A stretch of 63,150 bases of DNA, from the NCBI GenBank assembly GCA_035624985.1, contig DASPQK010000307.1, forward strand, positions 1-63,150, in the 5' to 3' direction. Every line of letters begins with the position of its first letter. The first letter of the stretch is position 1. Made by a program: the position numbers and the translations under genes. Source of the stretch: Syntrophobacteraceae bacterium. GTDB lineage: Bacteria > Desulfobacterota > Syntrophobacteria > Syntrophobacterales > Syntrophobacteraceae. Positions 2,967 through 43,206 of this stretch are shown here, piece after piece. The notes under the pieces were generated by a model. The model was not told the origin of the DNA, ran no database searches, and saw only the letters and a program-made list of their open reading frames with translations.

Positions 2967-3015
2967 CTGCGTTCAAGATTGGGCTGGGGTAAACCCCCAT
3001 AAGCGCTTAAATAAG
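2967..3015 (+). repeat. Dispersed repeat family, copy B
   Basis: ctgcgttcaagattgggctggggtaaacccccataagcgcttaaataagg; differs from copy A by only a few substitutions or indels. Confidence 0.75.
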
Positions 3016-3110
3016 GACGAGGCTCCGCAAGGAAAAGGGACGGCATTCCCGCGAAGCCTGCCCCGGACCTGATCCGGAGGCGGGAATCCATAGTTCTTGA
3101 TTTTCGTTAT

Positions 3111-5237
3111 CTATGCAAAAATGCTTATTTGCGACCGGCGGGTCATATTAGTATTGTTGACACTGGGGGCAGGAGTCTGGACATTGAGGACTCCTGTTTC
3201 TTTGGGGGGTGGAGTGATTTTGCCGCCGCCATTGTTGGCTCCCGCGTAATTTCCGTTGCCCGATCTCCCGCTGTTCACGTCAACCGTGAATTTTTCAAGT
3301 ACGAGCCCCTGGTCCTGGAGATCCTGGCGAAGCTCGGATGCATTCCTCATAAGCGCCTCTCTTGCAGGTTCGCTTTGCGTGAGGGCCGCCACCGTAATCT
3401 CATCCTTTTTTGCCCCCACTTTTATGCTGATCTTTCCGAGTCCATCCGGGTCGATATCGAGCACCAGTTGGCTGCTTGCTGTGCCCGAGAGCCGCTCGCC
3501 CATATCCTGGCCAAGTTCTGCCGACTGGTATGCGTCGTAGTAATCAAATCCGCTCCGGACCAAATTATCCGGCTTCGGAGGACTTATTTGCTCACTATGG
3601 GGAGCGGAGGCCGAGTTCTGGAAAACCATGCTCTGCGCGACCGAATCCTTGTTTCCGACCGGCGTCTCGACCGGTTTTTCTCTCAGCGCCTCTCCAAACT
3701 GCGCCTGCAGAGCCTCTGAATCGAGTTTTACCGAGGGCGTCGGCGTCTCGGTTTGTCGAGTGGAATCGCCGGACTGATTCTCCGTATCGTCCGAAGGCGT
3801 TTGATTGGAAGGAAATTCAGCCGAAACCGTCCTTATTCGACCGGTCCCGGACTGTTCGGCGATCTCCTGTGATATGCCCGAACTCAAAGCCTCCCCGGGT
3901 TTGTCCGCCTGCTTTTCAGCTCCTTTGACCTGGAAAGCAAGACTCTGGGCCTGAGCGGCCAAGCTCTCATGAAGTCCGCCGGGCGCCGGGGCGCTATCCA
4001 CTGTCGTCTCCAACTGTTGCTGCGGGTCCGCGGACGCTAATGTCGCGTCGAAGTATTTCAAGACTGCGTAGAGGTCCTTGACAGACGTGCTTTCCTGCCG
4101 GGCCGGAGACGGTGCGAAGTCTGGACCTGAGGACGATGCAATCTTTTCGCCTTCTATTCGGGATCCCGTACCGGTTGGCGCGGCCTGAGAGCCCGCTTGC
4201 TCCGGCGGGATTTTATCGGCGCCCGGCAGCCTGTCCGGCTTCGAGTCGTTTGAAACGGGTTCAGAAGAATTTCCGCTTGCATCCGTCACTTTTGGGCTCT
4301 GCGTTTCAACCTTCGGATTGATGGCATTTGCGGCGAGGACCTTTTCAATCGAACCGCTTTCATAGCCTTCAAGAATAAAAGAGGGAAGGACAGTCGCCGC
4401 CAGCATCTCAGTCTGGCCCACTTTTGGAGCTTGAGCCGTTTCGATCGTTTGTGCCGGTTTGCTCGTTTGAGCCGTTCCCTGAGAACCTGGCTCAGAGCCA
4501 GGGCCTGCAGCCTGCCTCAGCCTCGAATGCGCCTCCTGCAAAACATTTTCGAGCAGTCCCCGCAATTCGTCAGGGCTGTATGATCCTTCCGGCTTGACCT
4601 GCACTGAGGGCTTGAACTCCCCTCCGGATGCCGGACCTTTTTGGTTTGTTCCGCTGTCCCCGGCAATTATGGATTCCACCAGCGCGCGAGCGTGTTCGGC
4701 GGGAACTTGGGCGCCGTTGCCGGGGTCAGAGGCAGGCTGAGAGGTCAGCAGTGATTTCAGGTCCTTGATGGAAATAAGGCCGTCTTTATTCTGTGCGTTT
4801 TTACACGCCTTTATGGTTTCCGCAGGATATTGAAGGTCGGCCAACACCGTTTCCGCTATGGCGGGATTTGTCACAAAGAGTCTTTTCTGCTCGTTGGCCT
4901 TTGCTTCTATCTCCTTTATCTTCGCCTTTGGATTCCCCGCGCATTTCTGTTGCCCTCCCGCAGAGCAAAGCGAGCTGTCCGTTCCATGAGTCGGGCCGGG
5001 CGCACCGGTCCCGGAGACCTCAGGCCCCGGCCCGGCCGCATTCCCCTTCATGGTCCCTGTCCCCGCATCCGCACTGGACGCAGTTGTCCCGCACTGCGCG
5101 CAATTAGCCGCTGGGGGCATCAGCTTCTTGAGTTCGCCGGTAAAGTCGCTCTGGACTATGCCCTGACTGATCTTTTCCTTTTCGCTTCCAAGAAACGATG
5201 CCATCAGCTGCATGGCGTTTACCTGTGCCAGTGCCAT
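3111..5237 (-). CDS. fliK: Flagellar hook-length control protein FliK
   Basis: C-terminal Flg_hook domain (QLVLDIDPDGLGKISIKVGAKKDEITVAALTQSEPAREALMRNASELRQDLQDQGLVLEKFTVDV). Long P/S/G/Q-rich linker. Start taken as the ATG at 5237 (MALAQVNAMQL); the ORF stays open to a TTG at 5345. Confidence 0.85.
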   Translation of the reverse strand: MALAQVNAMQLMASFLGSEKEKISQGIVQSDFTGELKKLMPPAANCAQCGTTASSADAGTGTMKGNAAGPGPEVSGTGAPGPTHGTDSSLCSAGGQQKCAGNPKAKIKEIEAKANEQKRLFVTNPAIAETVLADLQYPAETIKACKNAQNKDGLISIKDLKSLLTSQPASDPGNGAQVPAEHARALVESIIAGDSGTNQKGPASGGEFKPSVQVKPEGSYSPDELRGLLENVLQEAHSRLRQAAGPGSEPGSQGTAQTSKPAQTIETAQAPKVGQTEMLAATVLPSFILEGYESGSIEKVLAANAINPKVETQSPKVTDASGNSSEPVSNDSKPDRLPGADKIPPEQAGSQAAPTGTGSRIEGEKIASSSGPDFAPSPARQESTSVKDLYAVLKYFDATLASADPQQQLETTVDSAPAPGGLHESLAAQAQSLAFQVKGAEKQADKPGEALSSGISQEIAEQSGTGRIRTVSAEFPSNQTPSDDTENQSGDSTRQTETPTPSVKLDSEALQAQFGEALREKPVETPVGNKDSVAQSMVFQNSASAPHSEQISPPKPDNLVRSGFDYYDAYQSAELGQDMGERLSGTASSQLVLDIDPDGLGKISIKVGAKKDEITVAALTQSEPAREALMRNASELRQDLQDQGLVLEKFTVDVNSGRSGNGNYAGANNGGGKITPPPKETGVLNVQTPAPSVNNTNMTRRSQISIFA

Positions 5238-27927: not shown

Positions 27928-29640
27928 TCATACCAGGATCGCCGAGATGGCCTCCTCGAAGGTGGTCAATCCCTGTATGACCTTGCTTATAGCATCATCC
28001 CTCAAGGTCCGCAGCTTCCCCGCCTTTACGGCAGCCTTGGTAATCTCGGGCGCCGAGGCCCTCTTGAGGATCATATCCTGTATCGTATCGTCGTTTAAAA
28101 GTATTTCGAAAATGCCGATTCTTCCCTTGTAGCCGGTATTCATGCAATTGAAACAGCCCCTGCCGCGAAACCAGGTGATGTTTTCCGTATTTTCCAGGCC
28201 GAACCGCTTGATGAGGTCCCCGGGTGGATCGTAAGGGGCTTTGCAGTACTGACAAACGGTCCTGACAAGACGCTGCGCAAACGATATGAGAAGAACGGAG
28301 GCGACAAGAAAAGGTTCTATCCCCATATCTATGAACCTTGTGATCGCCCCGGCAGCATCGTTGGTGTGGACAGTGCTGAGCACCCGGTGACCGGTCATGG
28401 CGGCCTGAACCGCGATGCTGGCCGTCTCCGAATCACGGATTTCGCCCACCAGGATGATATCCGGGTCTTGACGCAGGATTGCCCTCAGTCCACTGGCAAA
28501 GGTCATTCCTGCTCTGCGGTTCAGTTGAATCTGGCGGATCCTTTCAACGCGGTACTCCACCGGGTCTTCCAGCGTTATGATGTTCACATCCGGGCTGTTG
28601 AGGTTTCGAAGGATTGCGTAAAGGCTCGTGCTCTTGCCGCTCCCCGTTGGACCGGTGCTCAGGATCATCCCGTAGGGCTTCCTAATTCCACTTTCAATGC
28701 GCTCCCTATCCTCTGCGGACATGCCAAGACGGTCTAGCGTGTAGTTGCCGGCGCTCATGTCAAGGAGGCGCAAGACCAGGTTCTCTCCATGAATGGTCGG
28801 TAAAGTGGAAACCCTTATGTTTATTTCCTTGTTCTCCATCCTGACGGTAAACCGTCCGTCCTGCGGGACCCTTAGCGTGGCAATATCCATCCCGGCAAGG
28901 ATTTTCACTCGCGAGACGATGGGCATCAGCATGGACTTGGGCGGGGCCGGCATCTCGTGCAACTTGCCGTCTATGCGGAACCGGACCGAGGAGGAAGCAT
29001 GTTCGGGACTGATGTGAATGTCGCTGGCCCCTTCCCGAACCGCCTGAGAGACGATGCTGTTGACCAGGCGGATGACCGGAGCTTCGTCAGCCATATCCTT
29101 GAGGGTGCTGACCTGGAGGTCCTGGCTTTCGCGCTCTTCCGGAGTTTCGGAGGTATCCTTGTCAATCTGCACTTCCTCGATGGTTTCCAATACATTGCCA
29201 AGCCCTGTCTGCATCCCGTACATGCTGTTCCGCAACTGGTTCAGCACCCTCTCGGTGCAGATCACGGGTTCCACCTCGAGATTAGTGGCCACCTCAATTG
29301 CATCCAGCGCCTCAACGTCCATCGGATCGGTCATACCGACGGTCAGTAGCCTGCCTTTTTTCCGCAAAGGAACGCTCTGGTGCCTCATCGCCAGATCGAA
29401 TGAAATTGTGTCGGCCAATTGTAAATCCACTGGGAAATCGCCGGGATGGTATTTCTCTATGTCGAGCTGACGGCTCAACATGTCTATAATCAGTCCCTCG
29501 CTGACAATCCCTTGCCGGATCAGGAACTGTCCTAGCTTCAAACCGGATTTCGCCTGCTCGGCCAAGGCCGCCTTCAGTTGCTCCTCACTCAAAAGCCCGG
29601 CTTCGAGGAGCATCTCTCCAAGTCTCTTCTTAATTTTCAA
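27928..29640 (-). CDS. pilB: Type IV pilus assembly ATPase PilB (GspE family)
   Basis: MshEN-type N-domain (LGEMLLEAGLLSEEQLKAALAEQ), Walker A GPTGSGKST, tetracysteine CQYC...CFNC motif. Confidence 0.93.
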   Translation of the reverse strand: MKIKKRLGEMLLEAGLLSEEQLKAALAEQAKSGLKLGQFLIRQGIVSEGLIIDMLSRQLDIEKYHPGDFPVDLQLADTISFDLAMRHQSVPLRKKGRLLTVGMTDPMDVEALDAIEVATNLEVEPVICTERVLNQLRNSMYGMQTGLGNVLETIEEVQIDKDTSETPEERESQDLQVSTLKDMADEAPVIRLVNSIVSQAVREGASDIHISPEHASSSVRFRIDGKLHEMPAPPKSMLMPIVSRVKILAGMDIATLRVPQDGRFTVRMENKEINIRVSTLPTIHGENLVLRLLDMSAGNYTLDRLGMSAEDRERIESGIRKPYGMILSTGPTGSGKSTSLYAILRNLNSPDVNIITLEDPVEYRVERIRQIQLNRRAGMTFASGLRAILRQDPDIILVGEIRDSETASIAVQAAMTGHRVLSTVHTNDAAGAITRFIDMGIEPFLVASVLLISFAQRLVRTVCQYCKAPYDPPGDLIKRFGLENTENITWFRGRGCFNCMNTGYKGRIGIFEILLNDDTIQDMILKRASAPEITKAAVKAGKLRTLRDDAISKVIQGLTTFEEAISAILV

Positions 29641-29675
29641 TTTCCACTCCCGGTTTTTGAATTTGTGCTCAGGCG

Positions 29676-30260
29676 CTACCCGATTCTCAATAGTGACGCA
29701 AGTAGCTCTTCAGAGATCCGTTCTCTAAAATTCGCACCAATTTCAGTAACACTGGAATGTCTTCTGACTCTGCGCGTTATGCACATTAGTTTGATCACAT
29801 TACCGAAAGAGGCATGCTTGGTTAAATAGAATTCTTGTGGAAACGATTCCATAATAACGGGTACGATACATCCAATTCCTTTTAACGATACATCCAAAAT
29901 GATACTGGGATATTCTACTATTCCAATCTCTCTTGCTATTCCAATCTGCATTATATTATAGACCAAATTCCTTGATGATTGCCTGTAATCTTTACCAGTG
30001 TGGTCGAGTGAAATATGGATAGAATCGTCTTCGTCGATTTCGTCAGTAGTGCAATAATCACACTCTGCCCCGAATACCGATAGACATGCTTCATGGAATC
30101 TTATGTAATCTGCGTTAGAACACAGAGCCATTCCTGGTGTCTTTTCAGATTCTCCCAAGAAAAACCGGCAGATGACACTACAGCACCGAGCGGAATGCGG
30201 ATCGCTGGCGGCGGTCTTCTCATCGCCACAGATCTCCCTTACCATTTTGTTGTAATCCAT
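29676..30260 (-). CDS. PilZ-domain protein with Cys-rich N-terminal region
   Basis: ATG 30260 after a GGGGAG RBS. RxxxR (YRQSSRN) and DxSxxG (DVSLKGIG) c-di-GMP motifs. N-terminal ~80 aa carries 8 Cys. Visibly more AT-rich than its neighbours. Confidence 0.6.
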   Translation of the reverse strand: MDYNKMVREICGDEKTAASDPHSARCCSVICRFFLGESEKTPGMALCSNADYIRFHEACLSVFGAECDYCTTDEIDEDDSIHISLDHTGKDYRQSSRNLVYNIMQIGIAREIGIVEYPSIILDVSLKGIGCIVPVIMESFPQEFYLTKHASFGNVIKLMCITRRVRRHSSVTEIGANFRERISEELLASLLRIG

Positions 30261-30694
30261 TCCGATTCGCTCCCCAGTTTGTCGGTCTAACTTCCATTCA
30301 TTGTGATGGAGCCAAACAATCATTACACACCGTGGTCCCACCGCCCCACAACCACTCGCCAATGCAAGGCAACGGGTTACGATGCAAAGATGAAGCCAAT
30401 GTGAAGACAAGCAAGAGCCGAGCAGACGAAATTTCCGCTCAGAACTCCTGAATATGCAATAACCCTAGATGTCTGAAAACTTCACCACCCGGCAGGCGAG
30501 GCTTCCAGTTAGACTGAAACATCAACGGTTACGGATCGGGCTTACGATCACCGTTGGCAACATGAACTATTTTTGTCTTTACCTCGGCTTCTCTGCGGCT
30601 CGGCGTGCGCCGTGGGCTGTATATTCACCTGTTGACCCCAAGAGATCGCAGATTGTTGATGTAATGTTTAGATTGTTGAAGGAGGTGACGTAAG

Positions 30695-32144: not shown

Positions 32145-32175
32145 TGCCGAAGGCCGGACTCGAACCGGCACGGGT
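32145..32175 (-). repeat. 31-bp duplicate of the 3' end (T-arm + acceptor 3' strand) of tRNA-Leu(GAG): putative distal att site
   Basis: tgccgaaggccggactcgaaccggcacgggt is identical to 36494-36524. No D-arm, anticodon arm or 5' acceptor strand follows. Confidence 0.85.
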
Positions 32176-32422
32176 TCGGCCACATAAGGCTTTGCCGGAG
32201 TAACGGACCAAAATCGGACCAAGAGAGTGCTTTTGAGGGCGGAGTTGGACGCGCGAAGCGTGAACAGTATGTAGGATTAGAATCGCCGGTACTGAAGCGG
32301 AACTTCGTAAATCGAAGCGACAGGAGCGGCTCTCCGACATCACCGGCAAGAGCGCTACCGGAGAAAGGGCATTTTGAAGCTGCACCAAGTTTGCACCCCA
32401 TGAGATTGGCGCACCCTTGTGT

Positions 32423-32743
32423 TCAGGGGTGTAATTCATCCTGGACAGGCGGGCGCGTCCGGAAGGTCACATGTACTTCAACATCCTCATTGAGTTTTCC
32501 GAGTATTGTGATCATGCGGTCGAGCGTAAAGCGCCCCAGTTTAGCATTGCGGATACGCGAAAACTCCGAATGAGAAACACCCGTTAGTCTTTCAGCTTCA
32601 CGTGTTGACAGATGGCGCTCGTCAAGGGTGCGTATGATCTTGGCGGCAAGAATGGCGCGGGCCTGTTCAATATCGGCATTCACGCGGCCAAAGTCACGAA
32701 AAGCATTGCCGCTGCCGCGAATGATTTCAAAATCGTCGTTCAT
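32423..32743 (-). CDS. XRE-family HTH antitoxin (partner of Gp49/HigB-type toxin)
   Basis: LSTREAERLTGVSHSEFSRIRNAKLGRFTLDRMITIL HTH. ATGA overlap with the upstream toxin reading frame. Confidence 0.75.
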   Translation of the reverse strand: MNDDFEIIRGSGNAFRDFGRVNADIEQARAILAAKIIRTLDERHLSTREAERLTGVSHSEFSRIRNAKLGRFTLDRMITILGKLNEDVEVHVTFRTRPPVQDELHP

Positions 32744-33086
32744 TGCAGGACCTCCTTCAAACGTTTCAGCCGGTCGCGGATAAGGTCAACCTCCATCTTC
32801 GGCGTTTTAATTCCGGCCTTGGATTTCTTTTGAAAGGCGTGAATAACCCAAAGATCATTACCGATCTTAACGGTGTAGATCACCCTGAATGCATCACCTC
32901 GATGCTCAATCGCGATTTCGAACACGCCGCCGTCAACGCCCTTGACAAGGGCTTGGCATTGTCCGATTTGTCGCCCTCGGCGGCTATTGTGAGGGCGCTT
33001 AGCATGTAGCCTTGCACATCTGCGGGAAATTCTTCGAAATCCCGTCGTGCCGCTTTGATCCATGAAATAGGCCGCGTGTTTCTCAT
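32740..33086 (-). pseudogene. Gp49-like (PF05973-type, HigB/RelE-fold) toxin, disrupted by a 1-nt frameshift
   Basis: N-terminal half MRNTRPISWIKAARRDFEEFPADVQGYML...NAKPL is in one frame. C-terminal half VKGVDGGVFEIAIEHRGDAFRVIYTVKIGNDLWVIHAFQKKSKAGIKTP is in another. The frames switch around 32945-32955. Confidence 0.7.
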
Positions 33087-33206
33087 GCGCTTAATGTTGG
33101 CATATTTGCCACCGCTTTGCAATCCCTCTTTTCATAACAAGTGACTCCACAAGATCGGTGGCATCAGAGGCGGATCGGATACCATAATCCTGTGGAGAGA
33201 AGCATC

Positions 33207-34937
33207 TTAGATCACCCGAAGAGCTTTGACGATGTCCGAACCGGAGGCGACGCTCTTTACCTCCCTCCGGAATGCATGATGCCGGGGAAATTTCACGAAA
33301 ACGAATTCATGCAGGAGAGACCTTGCTTTTTCGATGCCGCCTGAAATGATGTAGTACTCAGCCAGAGATCCCAGCACGCCGGCGGCCCGATCATACGCGC
33401 CCCGATGCTGGCCGGATACGATCGCCTCAATGCGTGATCGACCAATCTTATCAACCCATGCCCGGTATTCACGCGTCTCCGGTTCACCGGTCTTAACCAA
33501 CTTCAGACCAGTGAGAATCTCCTTATAGGCCTCTTCCGGCTTGGAGCCGTCGTCATCCTCGTCATAATAACCACGACTTTCGGCATACTGTTTCAGCAAG
33601 GTCCTGACAGTGACCGCTTTTGAGGAGTTATCAGTGAGGACTGACAAAATAGAGGCAAAAACGACCCCCGCGTTTCCGGAGGACCAACCAAGATTCTTTT
33701 CGCCCTTAGCTTCACGGAAGGCTTCCTGAAGCCTCCCGGCCATCAGCAGCGCCTTTACATAGAGGTTTCCCCGTCCGTATTTGTCATCCTCTTTTTTCCG
33801 TTCCAGAGAGGAGAGAACCGTCTCTAATTCTTGAAAACGCACGTTCTGTTTCCGGGCTTCGCCAAGCAATTCGAGCAGGTTTCTTTCGTTAGGCACCGAG
33901 AGGAATCGCTCCCGTTTTCCCATCAGTACATATTCGGCTATTTCAAGTCGCTCAGCGGCCATCGTAAAATACTCGGCCGCCTGCTCACGGAATGTCCCAT
34001 TGGGCAGTGCGTCCAAGGCTTCCCTGCATACATCGATCATTTCTTGCCGGTTACCTTCATTTTCCAGGCACTGAATCCAGAATAGATAGCCGCGGGGCTG
34101 CTCGGATTTCCATTTCCTCGCAAGTACTGATATACCATCGACTCCCTTCAGTTTTTGAACGGCTTCCATTCTAAGAACGGACGCCCTGTCACCGGAATAG
34201 CGCGCCAACCTCTTTTCCCAGGCCAGCAGGAAGGTTTCCAAGTCTGTTAACTCGCCAAATCGAGCGTCTATCAAATCCTGCAACATCGGAAATCTCTCGG
34301 ATGGCAGGTCCAGGCGGTAATCGTTAAGCGAAGCGTCGATATTGATGCAGGCCAAAACGGATTCAACCCGCCGCTTCGGATCGACAGTTTCATAGACGCA
34401 ACGGCAATATCTTGCCCTTTCTTCCCGGATGTCCAGTGACTCTGGAGAGGGGTAACCGGCGACCTGACTGTTTTCATCCATGAAATCAAAGAGTGCTCGA
34501 TATAATCGGCTTGCAGTTTCCAACCGGCCATCCAGGAAAATGCCACCCGTTTCCAGAAACAAGTCCTGCAGTTCCTCAACTTGCTCTGAGGTTACGTAAT
34601 CCGGCTCCTCATCATCGTAGCCGACATCTTCCCACTGATCGGGATCATCCCAATAGTCACCGCTTTCAATGGATTCAACTCTTTGCCGGATCTCCTCCCC
34701 AAGAACGGCAATTCTTTCGAGCAAGGCTTCTTCGGGATCTTTACCTGTTTTCTTCTCTCCGGGATCCGGAGCGAGGACCCGGATTTTATCCAAAAAATTT
34801 ACACGCCCCCTTACCGGCGCCTCTTGAGCCAAGTTCAACAATGTTTCAACCAGTTGCTCTTTTGAGAGCCCCTGGCAATGCTCTCTCACAGCTTCAAGAT
34901 ATTGTTTCAGAGGAATTTTGCGCGGGGAATTTTCCAT
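33207..34937 (-). CDS. Uncharacterised 576-aa all-alpha protein with acidic insertions
   Basis: Long clean ORF with no TM or signal peptide. No catalytic motif recognised. Acidic stretches SGDYWDDPDQWEDVGYDDEEPDY and YYDEDDDGSKPEE. Lies inside the tRNA-Leu islet. Confidence 0.6.
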   Translation of the reverse strand: MENSPRKIPLKQYLEAVREHCQGLSKEQLVETLLNLAQEAPVRGRVNFLDKIRVLAPDPGEKKTGKDPEEALLERIAVLGEEIRQRVESIESGDYWDDPDQWEDVGYDDEEPDYVTSEQVEELQDLFLETGGIFLDGRLETASRLYRALFDFMDENSQVAGYPSPESLDIREERARYCRCVYETVDPKRRVESVLACINIDASLNDYRLDLPSERFPMLQDLIDARFGELTDLETFLLAWEKRLARYSGDRASVLRMEAVQKLKGVDGISVLARKWKSEQPRGYLFWIQCLENEGNRQEMIDVCREALDALPNGTFREQAAEYFTMAAERLEIAEYVLMGKRERFLSVPNERNLLELLGEARKQNVRFQELETVLSSLERKKEDDKYGRGNLYVKALLMAGRLQEAFREAKGEKNLGWSSGNAGVVFASILSVLTDNSSKAVTVRTLLKQYAESRGYYDEDDDGSKPEEAYKEILTGLKLVKTGEPETREYRAWVDKIGRSRIEAIVSGQHRGAYDRAAGVLGSLAEYYIISGGIEKARSLLHEFVFVKFPRHHAFRREVKSVASGSDIVKALRVI

Positions 34938-34988
34938 GATCCAGTTACCTCTGGGATTGACGGTTTACACCAGCCAGGATCCCGGCAA

Positions 34989-36056
34989 CTATTCCTGCTC
35001 GGAAGACGGTCTGGCCATCCATGAAGCAGCACTCTGCCGGTTGGAGCCGGCGACCGCTCGTACCGCGATGTCCTGCACTTTGCCGTAGGCGCTTTCCAGT
35101 TGTTCGGTCAGTTTCTCGATCTGTTTCTTCTGCGTTGCCAACGCCTGCTCGAAAGCATCGATCCGTGCTTGAAGGACATTTTTCTCCCCTTCAAACCCTT
35201 TCAACAGCAGTTGTTCATTCTTGGCCGCCTCAGAAGTGAGCTTCATTGTCACTTCATTGACCGCTTTGCTCACAGCGCTTTCGATCTCCTTCGGGAAGGC
35301 GTCCACCTTAGTCTGCAAATCGTTCATCGACTTCTCGCGCTCGCCAACCGCCTGCTCCCGCTCCTTGAGTTCGACTTCCTTGGCCTTCGTCTGTTTATCA
35401 AATTCTTCCTTCTTTTCCCGGAGGTCCTTCTCAAGCTTGCTGATTTCGTCATTGAGCGCGTTTATCTTCTGCTCCTTTTCACGTGCCGTCTTATATTCGT
35501 ACTCCTCTTTTTCGCGCCGCCGCCGCTTATCTTCCTGCTCTCTCTGGTCTTTCAACTCTTCGGTATATTGTTTCTTTTGACTCTCCCACCCGGCCTTCAC
35601 CTGGCTTATCTCCTGTTCAAGAGATTGCTTTCGCTTCGCCATTTCGTCTTCGAACCATATCTTTTGCTGCTTTTGCGCTTCGAGGAGAGCGGCCAGAGTG
35701 AAGGCGGATTTTTCAATCTCAAAAAGCTCGCGCAGTTCAGCTTCCTTGAGATCAATCGCTTTTTTGAGCTTAGTGTAACGTTCCGTTTCTCCCTCGAGTT
35801 TGATGGCAATGTCAGTCAATGCCTTGCCGGTTTCGCCTATCAGTTCGTTTACCGTCTTGATCACCGCGTGCGTCGTGAGCGCGTCGGCGGTTTGTAATAC
35901 CTCTTGCTTTTCTCGTTCCGCTTTTGCTTTCTCCGGCTTTAGCTCGGTTTGAGCCTTGGTTTCAAGCGATTTGAGAAGATCGTTGTATGCATCGAGTATT
36001 TCTTTTTTGGTGCTGGTGGCGGTGATGCCTGGAACGCCTTCTGATTTCGTGGGCAT
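34989..36056 (-). CDS. Uncharacterised 355-aa K/E-rich coiled-coil protein
   Basis: ATG 36056 after a GGAGA RBS (ORF open to 36128). Almost entirely heptad-like. 51 nt upstream of the 576-aa gene on the same strand. Confidence 0.6.
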   Translation of the reverse strand: MPTKSEGVPGITATSTKKEILDAYNDLLKSLETKAQTELKPEKAKAEREKQEVLQTADALTTHAVIKTVNELIGETGKALTDIAIKLEGETERYTKLKKAIDLKEAELRELFEIEKSAFTLAALLEAQKQQKIWFEDEMAKRKQSLEQEISQVKAGWESQKKQYTEELKDQREQEDKRRRREKEEYEYKTAREKEQKINALNDEISKLEKDLREKKEEFDKQTKAKEVELKEREQAVGEREKSMNDLQTKVDAFPKEIESAVSKAVNEVTMKLTSEAAKNEQLLLKGFEGEKNVLQARIDAFEQALATQKKQIEKLTEQLESAYGKVQDIAVRAVAGSNRQSAASWMARPSSEQE

Positions 36057-36493
36057 GGCTGTCTCCATGAATGGTTGATGATAAAACCAGACTCTGTTCC
36101 TAACGAACTGTCCTTCCGTCCCCGGCAAAGCTCAGGCCTCTTAATATAGCGGAAAGCAGCTCGAAAGCAAGACAAGGCTTTCTTGATTCCACCCTGTTGC
36201 GTCATCGTAGACCAGATAAGGTGCATTTCCTCCTTGTTTGACTCTTAGAGCTTGCGTGGGGGGCTCAGCGGCCTCCTTTCTCTTTCTGTCCGGGTAAAAA
36301 AAGCCATTTAGGTGCTGTTTTCTTGAGTGCTAACCGTCGGCCGGCAGATCTCCTCACAAATTGTTCCTTATAACCGATGCCGAAGTCCTTCCTCGGCAGA
36401 TGGACCGTAAGTAGTTGATTCTGCTAGGCATGAGTTGGATTGGCGAAGTGGCGGTACGCGATAATCTATTGAGTTTAGTGAGAATTTTGGCAG

Positions 36494-36576
36494 TGCCGAA
36501 GGCCGGACTCGAACCGGCACGGGTCTCCCCACCACCCCCTCAAGATGGCGTGTCTACCAACTTCCACCACTTCGGC
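36494..36576 (-). tRNA. tRNA-Leu (anticodon GAG), class II with long variable arm; CCA not encoded
   Basis: Hand-folded: acceptor GCCGAAG/CTTCGGC, D-arm GTG/CAC, anticodon stem CCATC/GGTGG with loop TTGAGGG, variable arm TGGGGAGACCCGT, T-arm GCCGG-TTCGAGT-CCGGC, discriminator A. 83 nt. Confidence 0.9.
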
Positions 36577-36733
36577 AGCGTGCAGCATTATAGAGGAACA
36601 GCACGACTTTTGCAACCCCTTCTTGCGACATCTTGTTGAAACGCCCGATGCAAGTCGTTACCTGTTGCTATTGTTCGGTTTTGGTTCTATATTTGATGAA
36701 AGTGCCAACTGACTGGAGACTTAAAAGAGCTGC

Positions 36734-37618
36734 ATGTCACATTTCGATTACTATGAAACACTTGGCGTCTCGCAGGACGCATCGGCCGAAGAGATCAAGA
36801 AGGCGTACCGCAGGCTGGCCCTTGAAACTCATCCGGACCGAAATCCCGGTGATGCCCGTGCAGAAGAACGCTTCAAGAAAATTAATGAAGCCTACGGAGT
36901 GCTTTCCGATTCCATTAAGCGATCCCAGTATGACCAGCACCTGCGCTCGGGATCTGAGCCGGGAAGGACTTGGGGAAGCGGCTTCGGATATTCGCAGGAT
37001 GAAATTTTCAGGGATTTTTTCATGGGCGGCCATTCCCGGGACATCTTTGAGGACTTGGAAAAAGAGTTTGCGCGCATGGGAGTGAGGTTCGATTCCGCCT
37101 TTATTGACAACCTGTTTTTCGGCGGGAGAAACATTTTCTATCAGGGTTTTGTTTTCGGCCCAAGCAGGATTCGAGTGGTTCGCATCGGCAGGCCATTCAT
37201 GCTGAGACAACGAGCATCCCGCCCTGCTGCCGCTCGGTCCCCGGGACTTTTCAAACCGGCAAAGCCAAAGGGTGAGTCGGGATCTTCTTTGCTTGGAAGG
37301 ATGGTGAAGAAGGCCTGGCAATATGTGCTGAAGAATTTTTCAGGCAGCGAGCCAAATATCGGGCGGGAAGAAAGGCCGGCTCGGGGATCCCTTGGGCATG
37401 AATTGACATACAATTTGCGGATTACTCAAGGACAGGCGCAGTTTGGCGATGTCGTGCAAATCAATCTGCCCCATTATGGAAGCGGCAAACTGATTTCGGT
37501 GCGAATTCCCCCGGGGGTAAAGACGGGGACAAGGCTACGGCTAAAGGACATGGGAAATCTCCTTCCCGGCAGTCGCCTGCGCAGAGGCGACGTCTACATC
37601 GTTTTGCAAGTCACCTGA
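36734..37618 (+). CDS. J-domain co-chaperone (CbpA/DnaJ-like, no zinc finger)
   Basis: [36 protein letters not shown] (HPD motif). DnaJ_C-like end ([16 protein letters not shown]...GDVYIVLQV). Confidence 0.85.
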
Positions 37619-37635
37619 ACGAGGCTGCCAGGTTC

Positions 37636-37656
37636 AAAATTCCGATTCCGAATTTT
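37636..37656. promoter_or_regulatory. Perfect 7-bp inverted repeat upstream of copZ (candidate operator)
   Basis: aaaattc-cgattcc-gaatttt, ~45 nt upstream of the copZ ATG. Confidence 0.25.
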
Positions 37657-37698
37657 CGATTTTTTGTCAAAGACAATATCTTCGAAAGGGTAAAGCGC

Positions 37699-37896
37699 AT
37701 GAGAACTGTAAAAATCAAAGGGATGTCTTGCCAGCATTGCGTTAGGACGGTGAAGAAGACCCTGGAGGAAATTGAGGGAATACAAAACGTCGCCGTGGAT
37801 ATGGAGACGGGGGAGGCTACTTTCGAAGAGGTCCGCCCGGTGGACGGCGACCTTATCAGGGAGAGGATCAAGAAAGCCGGTTATGAGCTTGGCTAA
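37699..37896 (+). CDS. copZ: Copper chaperone CopZ (HMA domain)
   Basis: VKIKGMSCQHCVRTVKKTLEEIEG: MxCxxC heavy-metal-associated fold. 65 aa. Confidence 0.88.
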   Translation: MRTVKIKGMSCQHCVRTVKKTLEEIEGIQNVAVDMETGEATFEEVRPVDGDLIRERIKKAGYELG

Positions 37897-40183
37897 GCAA
37901 GGAGTGCAAGAAATCGAGAAAGTAGATAAGGACCGCAGGAAGACTGCCGTTCTTGTGGGAGGAATGAGCTGCGCGGCATGTATCAGGCGGGTGGAAAATG
38001 CCCTCAGCACTGTCCCCGGTGTTGAGAACGCAGCGGTAAACCTTGCCACGTCCAGGGCTACCATAGACTATTCACACCGGCTTACCGACTGGTCGGCCAT
38101 AAGGAGGGCAATAGAACAGGCGGGATACGAATACCTCGGGGTCTACCGGGAAGAGGCCGGAGATCCAGCCGAGGCTGCACGGTTAAAAGAGATTGCCGAG
38201 ATGAAACATAAGGTGGCGGTGGGCGCTGTGCTGAGTGTCCTGGTAATGGCAGGCACAATGCAGCATTTTTTCCCGGTTCTGTACGCCGTTCCCCGCCGGG
38301 TGATGCTTTATATTCTTCTGGTTCTCAGCACGCCAGCGGTTTTCTGGGTGGGGGACCGGTTTCTTAAAGGAGCGCTCAAAGCCACACTCGTCAAAACTGC
38401 GGACATGAACACCCTGGTCGCCATCGGCTCTCTTTCCTCATATATCTATTCAGTTTTTGCAACTATTTTCCCGCACTTCTTTTCAGCCCCAGGCGGCGAA
38501 CCGCCTGTCTACTTCGACGGCGCGGCCATGATCGTAACGCTTGTGCTGCTGGGCAGGTTTCTCGAGCTTAAGGCCAGGGGCAGGACTTCGGAAGCCATAA
38601 AAAGGCTGATGAGACTCACGCCCAAAATGGCGCGGGTTATACGGGACGGCGCCGAGATGGACATTGCTGTCGAGGAAGTGCTGCGCGGCGATTCTATCGT
38701 GGTCAGGCCCGGTGACCGGATACCCACTGACGGAAGCGTGGTATCCGGAGAATCTTCCGTAAATGAGTCAATGCTCACGGGCGAGAGTATGCCGGTTTCT
38801 AAGAAGCATTCCGATGAGGTGTTTGCCGGGACCATCAACCAGAGTGGGAGTTTCGTTTTCAAAGCCACCAGGATTGGGGCTGAAACGGCCCTGGCGCGAA
38901 TCATCCACCTAGTCGAGGAGGCTCAGGGGTCCAAAGCCCCTATAGAAAGATTCGCCGACAAAGTCGCATCCGTTTTCGCCCCGGTGGTTATCTCCATTGC
39001 GCTCTTTACATTCATCATCTGGTATTTCGCAGTGCCGGGGCACATTCTTAGCCGCGCACTTCTCAATTTCGTGTCGGTTCTCATAATTTCATGTCCTTGC
39101 GCAATGGGGCTGGCTACGCCGACTGCCGTGATGGTGGGCGCCGGTCTAGGTGCGGAAAACGGAATACTCATAAAGGGTGGAGAAAGCCTCGAAGGCGCGT
39201 GCCACCTCACTACGACAGTATTCGACAAGACCGGCACCATAACCAGGGGAGAACCTGAAGTAACCGATATCGTCCCGGCCGGAGGGTTTTGCGAGGCTGA
39301 TGTTCTTAGCATGGCCGCTTCAGTGGAGTGTCTGTCGGAACACCCGCTGGCAAAGGCGATAGTCAAGAGCGCGCTCGATAGAAATGGTGGACCGGGCAGG
39401 AGTTGGGATATGGTCCTCGGTTTTGAATCTGTCTCCGGGCTGGGTTCGCGGGCCAGGCTGGGCGGCAGCAAAATCATCATCGGAAGCCGTAAGTTTATCG
39501 AGTCGGAAGGGGTAAGCACCGGCGCACTCGACCGGGACGTCGCGACGCTGGAGGAAGCCGGGAAAACATGTGTCTTTGTGGCAAAAGACGAAAAGCCTGC
39601 CGGGGTCATCGCCCTTGCCGATGCGATCAGGCCTACGGCGAAGGAAGCCGTATCCCTCCTAAGGAGCATGGGTCTTGAGGTAATGATGATGACCGGCGAC
39701 AGGCGGCAGACAGCGCAGGCAATTGCTCGCCAGGCAGGAATCGAGCGGGTGCTCTCCGAGGTCCTTCCTGGGGACAAGGCCGGCGAAATCCGGCGGCTTC
39801 AATCGGAGGGCAGGGTCACGGCCATGGTGGGAGACGGCATCAATGACGCTCCGGCCCTTGCATCGGCAGACATTGGAATTGCAATGGGCGCAGGCGCGGA
39901 CATCGCTATCGAGGCTAGCGATATCACTCTGATGCGGGACGATCTCCTGCTGGTCCCTTCAGCTATAAAGCTTTCTTCGCTGACCATGCGGATCGTTAAG
40001 CAGAACCTTTTCTGGGCCTTTTTTTACAACTCGGCAGGCATTCCGATTGCTGCCGGGGCGCTCTTTCCCTTTTTCGGCATTTTGCTCAATCCTATGTTCG
40101 CTGCCGCAGCAATGGCCATGAGCTCGGTTTCGGTGGTCTCGAACGCACTGCGCCTGCGGCGAATCTGGGGGAAGCGCTCTTGA
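37883..40183 (+). CDS. copA: Copper-translocating P1B-type ATPase CopA
   Basis: One HMA domain (GMSCAACIRRVENAL), TGES, CPC (SCPCAMGLATP), DKTGT, GDGINDAP. Start ATG 37883 overlaps the copZ end. Confidence 0.93.
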   Translation: MSLAKQGVQEIEKVDKDRRKTAVLVGGMSCAACIRRVENALSTVPGVENAAVNLATSRATIDYSHRLTDWSAIRRAIEQAGYEYLGVYREEAGDPAEAARLKEIAEMKHKVAVGAVLSVLVMAGTMQHFFPVLYAVPRRVMLYILLVLSTPAVFWVGDRFLKGALKATLVKTADMNTLVAIGSLSSYIYSVFATIFPHFFSAPGGEPPVYFDGAAMIVTLVLLGRFLELKARGRTSEAIKRLMRLTPKMARVIRDGAEMDIAVEEVLRGDSIVVRPGDRIPTDGSVVSGESSVNESMLTGESMPVSKKHSDEVFAGTINQSGSFVFKATRIGAETALARIIHLVEEAQGSKAPIERFADKVASVFAPVVISIALFTFIIWYFAVPGHILSRALLNFVSVLIISCPCAMGLATPTAVMVGAGLGAENGILIKGGESLEGACHLTTTVFDKTGTITRGEPEVTDIVPAGGFCEADVLSMAASVECLSEHPLAKAIVKSALDRNGGPGRSWDMVLGFESVSGLGSRARLGGSKIIIGSRKFIESEGVSTGALDRDVATLEEAGKTCVFVAKDEKPAGVIALADAIRPTAKEAVSLLRSMGLEVMMMTGDRRQTAQAIARQAGIERVLSEVLPGDKAGEIRRLQSEGRVTAMVGDGINDAPALASADIGIAMGAGADIAIEASDITLMRDDLLLVPSAIKLSSLTMRIVKQNLFWAFFYNSAGIPIAAGALFPFFGILLNPMFAAAAMAMSSVSVVSNALRLRRIWGKRS

Positions 40184-40260
40184 TTGCGTGCTGACGGCCT
40201 TTTATATTATGGCCCTTGCTGTTCCAGTAATGACGATACTCATACTTATAAGGAGGAGAA

Positions 40261-40422
40261 ATGGATCGATACGTATGTACGGTGTGCGGCTACGTCTATG
40301 ATCCGGCTGTCGGCGATCCTGACAACGGGATACCCGCCGGCACTAAGTTCGATGAGCTGCCCGATGATTGGGTTTGCCCCGTCTGCGGCGCACCCAAGCA
40401 AGACTTCGAAAAAGAAAAATGA
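40261..40422 (+). CDS. Rubredoxin (53 aa; below the ORF-track length cut-off)
   Basis: [64 protein letters not shown], with two CxxCG knuckles. Confidence 0.9.
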
Positions 40423-40961
40423 TGCGGGAACTATCTTATGGGGAGGTCTGCAAGGTGGGCTACGGTTTCAATGCGGCAGAGGTTTTTAGAGTTGCCATTC
40501 AGGTAGAAGAAAACGGCAGGAGATTCTATGAAGAAAGCCGCAAGAACATAGAAAGCGCTGAAATCAAGGAGCTTTTATACGACCTGTCCCAGCAGGAGAT
40601 CGCTCACAAAACGAAGTTCGAAACCCTTCTTGCCGAGCTTCCTTGCGAGTCTAAGATTGCCACCGTCTGGGACCCTCAAAATGAAATAGATCAGTACATC
40701 GGGATGATGGCGGCCGATCATGTTTTCGTATCGAGCCAAGAGGTTGAAGATCGGGTCAGCCGACTCAGGGACGCCGCTGACGCCCTCAAGCTGGCGATAG
40801 AATTTGAAAAGGACTCGATAATTTTCTTCCTCAGCTTTGAGGATGCCATGTCACGCGAAAGTGACCGGCAACTCATAAAAAGTCTGATTAAAGAAGAGCA
40901 AGAGCACCTTAGACGGCTTACATTAGAGTTGAGGAAAATCACGAATAAACGGATTGAGTAA
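40419..40961 (+). CDS. Ferritin-like/rubrerythrin-family di-iron protein (no rubredoxin domain)
   Basis: ATGATG overlaps the rubredoxin stop. ExxH-type helices [47 protein letters not shown]. Confidence 0.7.
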
Positions 40962-41048
40962 ATAAGGATTTGATTCGCAGGTCTGCAATGAGGTCTCCTC
41001 GGGAGGCTGCTCAAGATCGGCGATGAAGTTGATGGTATAGCAGGCAGG

Positions 41049-41278
41049 ATCAAGATCTTCTCGACTCCGGGGTGCGGTCTTTGCAACCAGGCTAAGAAGT
41101 AGTTTACCGGGAAGGGTGTCGAAGTCGACCTGTGGATGTGACCAGGGACAGCGAAGCATTGCTGGAGATGAGAAAACTTGCGGGAGGCGTTCGGAGCACG
41201 CCAGTGATCTCCGTTTGCGATAAAGTGTTTATCGGGTTGACCCGGAAAGAACTGGAGGAAGCCTCAAGCTGCCTCTGA
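41049..41278 (+). pseudogene. Glutaredoxin-like (YruB/NrdH-type) gene remnant with in-frame TAG and a frameshift
   Basis: IKIFSTPGCGLCNQAKK-TAG(41100)-FTGKGVEVDLW, then a frame switch to DVTRDSEALLEMRKLAGGVRSTPVISVCDKVFIGLTRKELEEA. No usable start codon. Confidence 0.55.
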
Positions 41279-41485
41279 AACGCAAGATGGAGGACGGAGA
41301 TCGGGCAATCTTACGAGTTAACATAACGCGTAGGACTTATAGTATATACAGGCCGCCCTCTCTTCGGTCCTCTGCTCTCCGTCCTCTGTCTTTACATTTG
41401 ACCTCGTTTCAGTTGTATGCTAGACTGCATGTTTGGGGAATCGAGCACAGCATTTGAACATCAGGGTCCTAAGGGATGAAGGTCC

Positions 41486-41695
41486 ATGTCTGGAGCGGGC
41501 GAGATTTTATGCGAAGGCCTTAAGCGAAGTTTAAGCAGTATGCTGCCATGGGACATACCCTGGTATGATCCAAGTCATTTAATATTTTTTGCAGCCCTTT
41601 ACGGGGCTCTTTCTGCAATTGTGATAGGCGTGATTTCCGCCCTTATTCTGACCGTTAAGCGTCTTAAGTCAGGGGAAGATGGTTCGCATCATTGA
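41486..41695 (+). CDS. Small single-TM hypothetical protein
   Basis: 69 aa with one helix (LIFFAALYGALSAIVIGVISALILTV). Weak RBS. No homology recognised. Confidence 0.3.
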   Translation: MSGAGEILCEGLKRSLSSMLPWDIPWYDPSHLIFFAALYGALSAIVIGVISALILTVKRLKSGEDGSHH

Positions 41696-41835
41696 GGCGG
41701 GCACGGGTAAACTTAGCATTGTCTTTTTCGAGCGAGGGTCTTTGTGGATGAGATTGCCGGGCCTTCGCTTTTATTTTCCTGCTCCTTATCTGTTGCGGAA
41801 ATGTGAAGGTAATTTCGAGATCGAGTGAGAAATTC

Positions 41836-43206
41836 ATGCTTCAAAAGATTTTCAGAGAATATGACTTACGTGGAGTTGCCGGGTCTGAAATTACCGACTC
41901 GGATGTGTCTACCCTTGGCAGGGCATTTGGAACATACATGGAGCGCCAGGGTAAAAGGCGAATCGTAGTAGGCAGAGACTGCCGTCTTACGTCCGAGAGG
42001 TTTCGCGATCTTCTGGTCGGCGGGTTGCTTCAATCAGGAATGGACGTTGTCGATATAGGCGTTTGCCCCACGCCGCTTTTCTATTTTGCGATCAGGCATC
42101 TGGAGCGCGAGGGCGGAATGATGATTACCGCCAGTCATAATCCTGCCGAGTATAACGGCTTTAAGATCTGCAACGGATTTGACACCATCGCCGGGGCTGA
42201 GATTCAGAAGTTCGCTCACATAGCGCATTCCGGAGACTTCATAGCAAAAGAAGGAAGGCTGGATCGGTTTGACATACTGACCCCGTACATAGATTTTGTT
42301 ACTGCCACCATTCGGCTCGACAACAAACTCAGAGTCGGGGTCGACGCCGGCAATGGGACGGGCGGTCCCGTGGCCACCGTCATTTTGGAGAAGTTGGGCT
42401 GCCAAATATACCCGATTTACTGTGATATGGACGGCACTTTTCCTAATCATGATCCGGACCCCACGGTAATGGAAAACCTGGCTGACCTGCGTAACCTGGT
42501 GCTCAGGGAGCGGCTCGATGTCGGCCTCACTTACGACGGTGACAGCGACAGGCTGGGCGTGCTCGATCATCGAGGCGAGGTAGTCTTCGGCGACAAACTT
42601 ATGATCATCTTCGCAAGGGATATTTTATCCAGGCGGCCCGGGTCGGTTTTCATCTCCGAGGTCAAGTGTTCCAAGACCCTTTATGATGATATCGAGAGGC
42701 ATGGGGGCCAGGCCATTATGTGGAAAACCGGCCATTCGCTCATAAAAGCCAAAATGAAAGAAGTGGACGCTCAACTTGCCGGTGAGATGAGCGGCCACTT
42801 TTTTTTCAAGGACGGATATTTCGGCTATGATGATGGGATATTCGCATCGTGCAGACTACTCGATGTACTCTCCAGGACTGCGAAAAGAATTCCCGAACTT
42901 CTTGATGGGGTCCCATCCATGCACACCACGCCCGAGATACGGATCGAGTGTCCGGATGAGATAAAGTTCGAAGTCGTCGAAAGGGCAAAAAAGCAATTTA
43001 AGGAGAAAAACTTCAAAGTAATAGATATAGATGGCGCCAGGATCACTTTCCCTGACGGTTGGGGCCTTGTGCGAGCGTCCAATACGCAGCCCGTTCTCGT
43101 CTTGCGCTATGAGGCCGAGACCATGGAAAGGCTGGGAGAGATCGGTGATCTGATCGAGTCAACGATCCGGGGAATAAGAGGAGAGTATTCAGAAAGAAAT
43201 GAATGA
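41836..43206 (+). CDS. Phosphomannomutase/phosphoglucomutase
   Basis: Active-site ITASHNPAEYNGFK, Mg loop DGDSDR, sugar-binding GEMSGH. Start at MLQKIFREYDLRGV. Confidence 0.9.
   Translation: MLQKIFREYDLRGVAGSEITDSDVSTLGRAFGTYMERQGKRRIVVGRDCRLTSERFRDLLVGGLLQSGMDVVDIGVCPTPLFYFAIRHLEREGGMMITASHNPAEYNGFKICNGFDTIAGAEIQKFAHIAHSGDFIAKEGRLDRFDILTPYIDFVTATIRLDNKLRVGVDAGNGTGGPVATVILEKLGCQIYPIYCDMDGTFPNHDPDPTVMENLADLRNLVLRERLDVGLTYDGDSDRLGVLDHRGEVVFGDKLMIIFARDILSRRPGSVFISEVKCSKTLYDDIERHGGQAIMWKTGHSLIKAKMKEVDAQLAGEMSGHFFFKDGYFGYDDGIFASCRLLDVLSRTAKRIPELLDGVPSMHTTPEIRIECPDEIKFEVVERAKKQFKEKNFKVIDIDGARITFPDGWGLVRASNTQPVLVLRYEAETMERLGEIGDLIESTIRGIRGEYSERNE

Follow-up and report, generated by a model that had tools for sequence, protein, structure and literature searches.

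We describe here a 4.3 kb islet in a stretch of 63,150 nucleotides (nt) from a Syntrophobacteraceae bacterium (contig DASPQK010000307.1), which in its whole length we refer to as the window. The islet lies between an intact gene for tRNA-Leu(GAG) and a displaced copy of that gene's 3' end and contains four genes, all on the minus strand, two of which encode large proteins without any annotation: a 355-residue coiled-coil protein, here called CC, and a 576-residue all-alpha protein, here called B576. The segment from 32145 to 36524 is very probably a decayed, integrase-less remnant at a tRNA-Leu integration hotspot, and its history is probably mosaic. The full explanation that we favor joins this decayed islet to a role for CC and B576 in mobile-element conflict or maintenance, and we consider it probable, with appreciably less assurance than for the islet by itself.

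The tRNA-Leu(GAG) repeat and the islet it bounds

The features of the islet are listed from the tRNA gene outward.

36494-36576, minus strand: intact tRNA-Leu(GAG) (ARAGORN; Rfam RF00005, 44.6 bits)
36494-36524, minus strand: proximal 31-nt repeat copy, the 3' terminus of tRNA-Leu and tRNA-proximal attachment-site copy (repeat finder, alignment)
34989-36056, minus strand: CC, 355-residue motif-rich coiled-coil protein, first gene of an apparent two-gene unit (open reading frame [ORF], homologues, AF2 model)
33207-34937, minus strand: B576, 576-residue all-alpha TPR-like solenoid (ORF, AF2 model, profile search)
32740-33122, minus strand: Gp49/HigB-like toxin pseudogene with a +2 frameshift (Pfam PF05973, E = 2e-14)
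32423-32743, minus strand: intact XRE-type (HTH_37) antitoxin (Pfam PF13744, E = 9e-18)
32145-32175, minus strand: distal 31-nt repeat copy, the displaced tRNA 3' end and far boundary of the islet (perfect match)

The tRNA gene is the only one in the 63-kb window; ARAGORN places it at 36493-36576 on the minus strand, and Rfam sets its boundaries at 36494-36576 and, over 31-38 kb, recognizes nothing else. The 31-nt sequence at its 3' end, TGCCGAAGGCCGGACTCGAACCGGCACGGGT, is present exactly twice in the window, in one orientation and as a perfect direct repeat, and no further copy was found in the window when three mismatches were allowed (0.00 expected, from 100 shuffles). In a pairwise alignment of the two copies the similarity does not extend past the 31 nt on either side. 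On the tRNA strand the repeat comprises the discriminator base, the 3' acceptor strand (7 nt), the T arm (17 nt) and six extra nt. The bracketed DNA is positioned 3' of tRNA-Leu, as is canonical for integration at a tRNA 3' end, and with one repeat copy inside the intact tRNA and the other in like orientation at the far end, the arrangement is that of a tRNA-integrated island or cis-mobilizable element (CIME). We propose that the islet descends from a site-specific integrative element that entered tRNA-Leu(GAG) at its 3' end and later lost its integrase and any transfer genes. Both attachment-site copies would have been retained, and movement would be possible only with a related integrase supplied in trans or in cis.

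Inside the islet at 36376-36395, about 100 nt 3' of tRNA-Leu, is a third, degenerate copy of the tRNA 3' end, GATGCCGAAGTCCTTCCTCG. It matches at 16 of 20 nt and has the GA dinucleotide that also precedes the distal repeat, and it may be an older integration scar or a chance match.

A Pfam scan of the four islet ORFs found no integrase domain and no excisionase or transfer gene, as is the case for CIMEs and distinct from integrative and conjugative or integrative mobilizable elements. Six-frame reading of both islet spacers revealed no integrase remnant, and tblastn of the whole window with the integrase of an element found at tRNA-Leu in relatives (locus L057, below) returned nothing better than E = 6.4, while the HTH_17 protein of the same element had no match in the window. 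No integrase domain is present either in the ten other ORFs that were scanned from 23.5 to 46.5 kb, which include type IV pilus and rubrerythrin genes as well as others that appear to be chromosomal. The immediate flanks of the islet are formed by DinB-like, Sel1, DnaJ-like and copper-ATPase genes, with Sel1, DinB and pilus genes making up the left flank. Within that left flank, a low-GC patch at 29300-30500 (0.42-0.48, with surroundings of about 0.53) contains a 244-residue ORF without a Pfam match (minus strand, 29676-30410), between pilB/pilC-type genes and the DinB-like gene.

The two genes nearest the distal repeat are what is left of a type II toxin-antitoxin (TA) module. As in the HigB/Gp49 (PF05973)-HigA/XRE (HTH_37) modules, both domains are present in toxin-then-antitoxin order, and the start of the XRE antitoxin overlaps the Gp49 stop by 4 nt, but the toxin gene is split over two frames, with the PF05973 match confined to the C-terminal frame and the break lying between the segments ...SDNAKPL and KGVDGG.... 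Because the toxin frame is broken by the +2 shift, the module amounts to an orphan antitoxin and a pseudogene. The identical frame break occurs in the closest relative, locus L056, which yet differs by an in-frame 3-nt indel, and since the break is common to both, the inactivation of Gp49 is old and not an assembly error.

A preliminary description of this DNA had drawn much the same outline, with an intact tRNA-Leu(GAG) gene and a perfect 31-bp copy of its 3' end interpreted as the footprint of site-specific integration, four minus-strand genes in the bracket, no integrase or excisionase, and a decayed Gp49/XRE pair. These points stand: ARAGORN, Rfam and the repeat finder agree on the bracket, the perfect repeat is correctly oriented and confined to its two copies in the window rather than found at many unrelated places, the ORFs confirm the genes, neither Pfam nor tblastn with the L057 proteins finds recombination genes, and the toxin is frameshifted next to an intact antitoxin.

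The tRNA-Leu(GAG) site in related loci

Related loci were found by a metagenome scan with the DnaJ-like protein adjacent to the islet, which yielded 16 loci with 63-80% identity in that protein. The gene order DnaJ-HMA-CuATPase(-rubrerythrin) is kept in all 16, and tRNA-Leu(GAG) stands beside the same DnaJ gene in 11, differing from the window's tRNA by one D-loop base. At this position the window has a G (GGAAGTTGG) and 11 of 11 related loci (within L056-L068) have a C (GGAACTTGG), and because of this private G no metagenome contig matched the complete window tRNA exactly.

Sequence 3' of the tRNA is present in seven of the related loci and its content is different in each, with the genes of the window's left flank absent from that side in all seven. 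Loci L057 and L059 have a tyrosine integrase directly beside the tRNA, accompanied by an HTH_17 excisionase-like gene, a TraG-like ATPase, AbiTii and PIN; L065 (1-2400) has a BrxC/D-family ATPase, L058 an alpha/beta hydrolase and a Shedu SduA_C protein (2982-4358), and L061 a PAS histidine kinase. Because the 3' side differs in each relative, and some relatives have an integrase or defense-type cargo there, tRNA-Leu is to be regarded as an integration hotspot, and in this Syntrophobacteraceae lineage tRNA-Leu(GAG) is a synteny breakpoint that accepts integrase-borne, defense-rich cargo.

Some details of these occupants are worth recording. In the integrase-bearing element (L057, 1-9600, and L059, 1-3650) the integrase is 401 residues long and faces the tRNA, the ATPase is TraG/TrwB-like and the PIN protein is a toxin, and the far end of the element lies beyond the contig. 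At L065 the BrxC/D-family ATPase has a 287-residue unannotated partner.

The preliminary description had proposed a comparison of occupied and empty versions of the site in related genomes. Alternative occupants, including the integrase-bearing element, are found in relatives, but no second copy of the tRNA 3' end was seen in these loci within the up to 9.8 kb available, and no true empty site was found. The related loci do not contain a junction of the window's left flank with tRNA-Leu, and a search for one with the left-flank Sel1 protein was swamped by repeat-protein matches; its best candidate, P0242 in locus L076, is not syntenic and was rejected. This weighs against our interpretation, since without such an empty site it is the repeat that defines the distal boundary, and so does base composition, with the GC content of the islet (0.50-0.53) being near the flank values and showing no anomaly.

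The unremarkable GC content, together with the synteny of CC in two Desulfacinum species, is what would be expected if the cargo consisted of ordinary, vertically inherited chromosomal genes beside tRNA-Leu and the repeat were coincidental. That explanation is effectively refuted by the chance expectation of the repeat, by the absence of tRNA-Leu near CC or B576 homologues in any of the 36 loci scanned for tRNAs, and by the finding that, of the seven relatives with the tRNA-DnaJ flank and 3' sequence, L056 alone has any of the cargo. The islet genes are thus not the conserved core neighbors of a repeat-less tRNA-Leu, an outcome against which the preliminary description had set its own interpretation.

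The closest relative, L056, bears on how the islet was put together. At the nucleotide level it is 92% identical to window positions 36486-42068 and 94% identical to 32823-33134 (Gp49), and it has 390 unrelated nt in place of window 33135-36485, the segment with CC and B576. Among these 390 nt, a run of 74 can be aligned with the ribosome-binding site and first approximately 15 codons of CC in the window, at about 75% identity, and we infer that CC formerly stood at this position in L056 and that most of it has been lost, plus whatever came after. This remnant and its upstream spacer are far more diverged than the flanks, the spacer not being alignable, and a CC cassette therefore appears to have been exchanged between conserved flanks. 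Because L056 has the TA module and, of CC, only what is left of a divergent allele, the four genes need not have come as one unit, and the sequence comparison speaks more for a mosaic history than for one four-gene element that stayed unchanged.

Carried to its end, this argument would make the bracket a mosaic hotspot that was never one unit, with the distal repeat copy the scar of an earlier integration (by an L057-like element, for example, that was later deleted) and with CC, B576 and the TA module having accumulated separately. The unequal divergence of the L056 segments points in this direction, as do the degenerate third copy of the tRNA 3' end and the different cargo at tRNA-Leu in every relative examined. 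However, the third copy could be a chance match, there is one perfect repeat pair only, and the four genes are co-oriented and separated by short spacers. We regard this version of events as somewhat unlikely, although it is compatible with, and not opposed to, the origin of the islet as a decayed island, which is the interpretation that we retain.

The CC and B576 proteins and their linkage

CC begins with an ATG at 36056 that is served by a GGAG ribosome-binding site and coincides with the starts of its homologues, and on these grounds a 379-residue ORF beginning with TTG was rejected as an over-extension. The protein has a pI of 5.5 and no globular domain. There are more than 650 homologues (clusters at 90% identity) of constant length, 77-83% identical within Syntrophobacteraceae and about 50% identical in Desulfacinum and Desulfobulbaceae, and they have in common the conserved motifs NTKKEMLDAY, FEIEKSAFSLAALLEAQKQKK, REKEEYEY, KGFEGEKNVL and AYGKVQDIAVKAV, with R-x3-E-x2-Y-x3-R as an invariant motif; a dN/dS of 0.10-0.13 indicates purifying selection. 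In the AF2 model (pTM 0.26), residues 63-335 form one continuous helix of about 270 residues, and we take CC to be an extended coiled coil that would oligomerize, with a predicted rod length of roughly 40 nm.

Database searches assign CC to no family. There is no Pfam or NCBIfam match beyond coiled-coil noise, and a PDB sequence search with the CC profile gave nothing meaningful. Against PADLOC-DB v2 the matches are to the coiled coils of LmuB, JetC and ZorA only (E = 2e-4 to 0.1), and matches to SMC and ASRP have E values of about 0.008 where the cut-offs are 300-567 bits; the SMC, LmuB and JetC matches are coiled-coil noise. CC was likewise rejected as an SMC/Rad50-type ATPase, being 355 residues long and almost entirely one helix with no Walker A/B head. 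CC does match phrog_29668 over nearly its full length (E = 3e-37), and gp268 of the jumbo Bacillus phage G (JN638751.1, 197039-198025), a near full-length homologue with 31% identity, is its sole phage match in INPHARED.

B576 starts 51 nt past the CC stop, so that the arrangement given in the preliminary description, a 355-residue coiled-coil gene followed after 51 nt by a 576-residue gene, is confirmed by the ORFs. A word-indexed search returned 122 homologues, nearly all of 570-590 residues, all labeled 'hypothetical' and all from metagenome-assembled genomes of Desulfobacterota, and an exhaustive profile search returned 1,655 clusters (50% identity) at E <= 0.001, nearly all of about 575 residues, with 491 of them at E <= 1e-30. 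The protein belongs to no Pfam family (TPR_14 scores 19.9 bits against a cut-off of 23.5 bits), its one NCBIfam match (E = 0.08) is not meaningful, it matches nothing in PHROG or PADLOC, and it has no sequence relatives in the PDB. Its AF2 model, of high confidence (pLDDT 86, pTM 0.76), is all-helical, and in Foldseek searches the model retrieves generic TPR superhelices only (TTC7B, OGT, IFT-A, IFIT), with probability 1.0 and a TM of about 0.2, and nothing significant among viral structures. The predicted structure makes it likely that B576 has a fold of the TPR-like superhelix class within a distinct sequence family. Most of the invariant positions in the alignment are Arg, Tyr, Glu, Trp or Gly, with no catalytic-looking motif among them, and residues 91-120 form a conserved acidic and aromatic loop with a net charge of -13; the dN/dS of 0.15-0.18 again indicates purifying selection.

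The view in the preliminary description that neither protein has an assignable motif is upheld by the absence of any Pfam, NCBIfam, PADLOC or PDB assignment and of a catalytic motif. The stretch GEKKTGKD is not a P-loop, as that description had also judged, because it sits in a variable, low-confidence linker. The remote-homology and structure searches that it proposed gave a generic TPR-like fold for B576 and the phrog_29668 match for CC but no family, and neither protein matches a housekeeping family.

The genes around B576 are highly variable across 45 genome loci. Among its nearest 148 genes are those for ResIII/helicase (8), SNF2 (5), AAA_21 (3), WYL (3), methylase (2) and PIN (2) proteins; hsdR is directly upstream of B576 in L002, a DUF3427/PLD/NgoFVII helicase-nuclease is downstream in L001, and in L033-L035 a WYL regulator is upstream and Cas3 downstream. 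B576 itself is frameshifted or truncated in six or seven of the 45 loci. Outside the window, the genes found near CC and B576 encode, among others, HsdR, Cas3 with a WYL regulator, SNF2 helicases, DUF3427/PLD, Wadjet, TIR, HNH, Fic, ParE and MazEF proteins.

A conserved divergent gene pair stands immediately upstream of B576 homologues in L010, L014, L039 and L045 (e.g. L039, 2170-5554). It consists of an SNF2 helicase (777 residues, with DrmD/ZorD/DpdE-like PADLOC matches) and an unannotated 368-residue protein (c4) with Cys-rich C-terminal motifs. We rejected this pair as independent evidence because the four copies are 83-90% identical and the loci form one closely related clade, although the pair may itself be a candidate system.

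The two cargo genes are adjacent in several other contexts. In L053-L055, CC is followed by B576 with the 51-nt spacer known from the window, the pair being flanked by a subtilase gene and a PEP-CTERM gene, and in L052 the order is the same with a 200-nt spacer and with a repeat protein, TPR463, upstream of CC. In L034 and L035 the order is WYL-B576-c44-CC, where c44 is a TPR protein and Cas3 lies further on, and in L049 (6384-7260) internally deleted remnants of B576 are found in reverse order, just upstream of CC and beside an HTH_17/DnaB element. Other loci have other partners: a split TPR463 is beside CC in L048 (6612-7917), a TPR463 remnant in L075 (9824-10063) and a C-terminal remnant of c44 in L078 (9394-9711). 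In all, an all-alpha repeat gene (B576, TPR463 or c44), or a remnant of one, adjoins CC in nine of 12 independent loci. With hhalign, B576 has a probability of about 1% of relationship to the TPR463 and c44 profiles, and as judged by sequence the three are not detectably homologous to one another. The linkage of CC and B576 is recurrent but facultative.

We note several further features of these loci. CC is intact in L049, L075, L078 and L048 although the neighboring all-alpha repeat genes have decayed. In L033-L035 (e.g. L035, 8969-18139) a partly conserved set with shuffled order consists of a WYL/WCX regulator, B576, the c44 TPR protein, CC, a four-helix-bundle protein (23S rRNA IVP) and Cas3, with L033 having neither CC nor the four-helix-bundle gene. 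The dense defense and TA island at L073 (1-12400) has a MukB-like JetC with JetD (Wadjet), TIR, HNH, Fic, ParE and MazEF genes around CC. An ancestral proximity of CC to DnaJ was considered and rejected, as the Desulfacinum J-protein has a zinc-finger architecture and has only the J domain in common.

CC and B576 are a co-oriented, probably co-transcribed pair of non-enzymatic proteins. In the mechanism that we propose, the CC rod would serve as a scaffold and the B576 solenoid as a protein- or ligand-binding sensor or adaptor, and the two would together form a structural or adaptor complex. B576 might sense nucleic acid or a phage protein by means of its arginine-lined solenoid and conserved acidic loop. 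The complex would belong to a loosely modular set, in which CC is combined with an interchangeable all-alpha partner (B576, TPR463 or c44), that circulates in variable, defense- and TA-rich regions of Desulfobacterota genomes, and it would act in mobile-element conflict or maintenance, relying on effectors encoded elsewhere. A role in defense is plausible through guilt by association; the scaffold and sensor/adaptor mechanism as a whole we put forward tentatively.

A number of observations run counter to a conserved functional partnership of this kind. About 42 of 47 B576 loci are without CC, and in one genome the two genes are on different contigs. CC is without a partner within the Wadjet/TIR/HNH/Fic/ParE/MazEF island of L073 and in L050 and L077, from two syntenic Desulfacinum species in which it is a stable chromosomal gene (in L077 with PRiA4_ORF3 upstream). 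The neighbors of B576 also include ABC permeases (7) and housekeeping enzymes, and neither protein matches a PADLOC system model beyond coiled-coil noise. B576 has no match in phage and plasmid collections, CC has only weak matches in plasmid collections and the single phage match, and the two proteins, singly and as profiles, have no match in IMG/VR.

The many B576 loci without CC, the genome with the two on separate contigs, and the alternative CC neighbors TPR463, c44 and PRiA4_ORF3 can also be understood if CC and B576 are functionally unrelated, both merely favoring the same variable regions, such that their adjacency is incidental. Adjacency is seen, however, in at least five independent contexts and spans two distant clades of B576 (39% and 61-76% identity), far above the expectation for sparse families, and both the window and L053 have a spacer of 51 nt. 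We think it doubtful that the adjacency is incidental and continue to prefer a linked, non-enzymatic pair.

At the other extreme, the pair could be a self-sufficient two-gene anti-phage or anti-plasmid defense system of a new type. It recurs in different contexts and gene orders, it is situated on a tRNA islet with a TA module, its homologues are found beside restriction-modification, Cas3/WYL, SNF2, Wadjet, TIR and TA genes, and the frequent disruption of B576 would fit such a system. But no nuclease, NTPase, TIR, pore-forming or other effector domain is found in CC or B576, PADLOC offers no match, most family members occur singly, and CC is stably chromosomal in Desulfacinum, and we judge this explanation to be unlikely. 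The preliminary description had put the pair forward as a candidate for an undescribed system, and the frequency of B576 without CC and the absence of an enzymatic domain do not allow us to establish it as such; of the co-occurrence and defense context by which it proposed to judge the matter, recurrent adjacency and defense-type neighbors are borne out, and regular co-occurrence is not.

Still more general would be the proposal that CC with an interchangeable repeat partner constitutes a widespread, undescribed, non-enzymatic conflict module of Desulfobacterota, used for defense or for addiction and maintenance, with CC as its core and a costly solenoid that turns over fast. If so, the cost and fast turnover of the solenoid would account for the frequency with which CC stands beside decayed partner genes, although we see this as an improbable extension of the partnership proposed above.

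Significance and comparison with known systems

These findings identify tRNA-Leu(GAG) as a hotspot with defense-type cargo in relatives of the bacterium studied here, including AbiTii, BrxC/D and Shedu-like genes. The more useful result is the recognition of two large cargo families without any annotation, both under purifying selection, with linkage to each other and to other repeat proteins that is recurrent, facultative and often situated in defense- and TA-rich regions, and the two families merit experimental follow-up. If the pair is a functional module, it would represent an effector-less, purely structural system, an uncommon type among known conflict systems, and would offer an entry point to several thousand proteins that now have no annotation.

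Long coiled coils and TPR-like folds are known from conflict systems, and in these respects CC resembles the ZorA tail and the SMC-like coiled coils of LmuB and JetC, and B576 the TPR sensor arms of Avs/STAND proteins and the eukaryotic IFIT proteins. IFIT1 and IFIT5 are among the Foldseek matches of B576, and some of the neighborhoods are defense-rich. The likeness is one of generic repeats, with a TM of approximately 0.2, the PADLOC and NCBIfam matches (E = 1e-4 to 1e-2) amount to coiled-coil noise, and CC and B576 differ from all of these in having no ATPase head, motor, nuclease or effector.

The islet itself is a known kind of structure, a decayed tRNA island with a broken HigB/Gp49-XRE module, in a little-studied anaerobic lineage. 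With the classical tRNA islands of Enterobacteriaceae (pheV, asn tDNA) it has in common integration at a tRNA 3' end, flanking repeats and a hotspot with varied cargo; it differs in being only 4.3 kb long, in having neither an integrase nor a GC deviation, and in belonging to an uncultured Syntrophobacteraceae lineage. CIMEs are defined as elements that keep attL and attR and have lost their recombination genes (PMC5704250), and the islet is CIME-like because its attachment-site copies are kept and the integrase and transfer genes are gone. Described CIMEs are from Firmicutes and their mobilization has been shown experimentally, whereas the islet is known here from its sequence. The resemblance extends to both attachment-site copies, one of them in the 3' end of the target, to the small size, and to the absence of integrase, excisionase and transfer genes, and the integrase-bearing element at the same target in relatives (L057, L059) would provide the setting for accretion and cis-mobilization.

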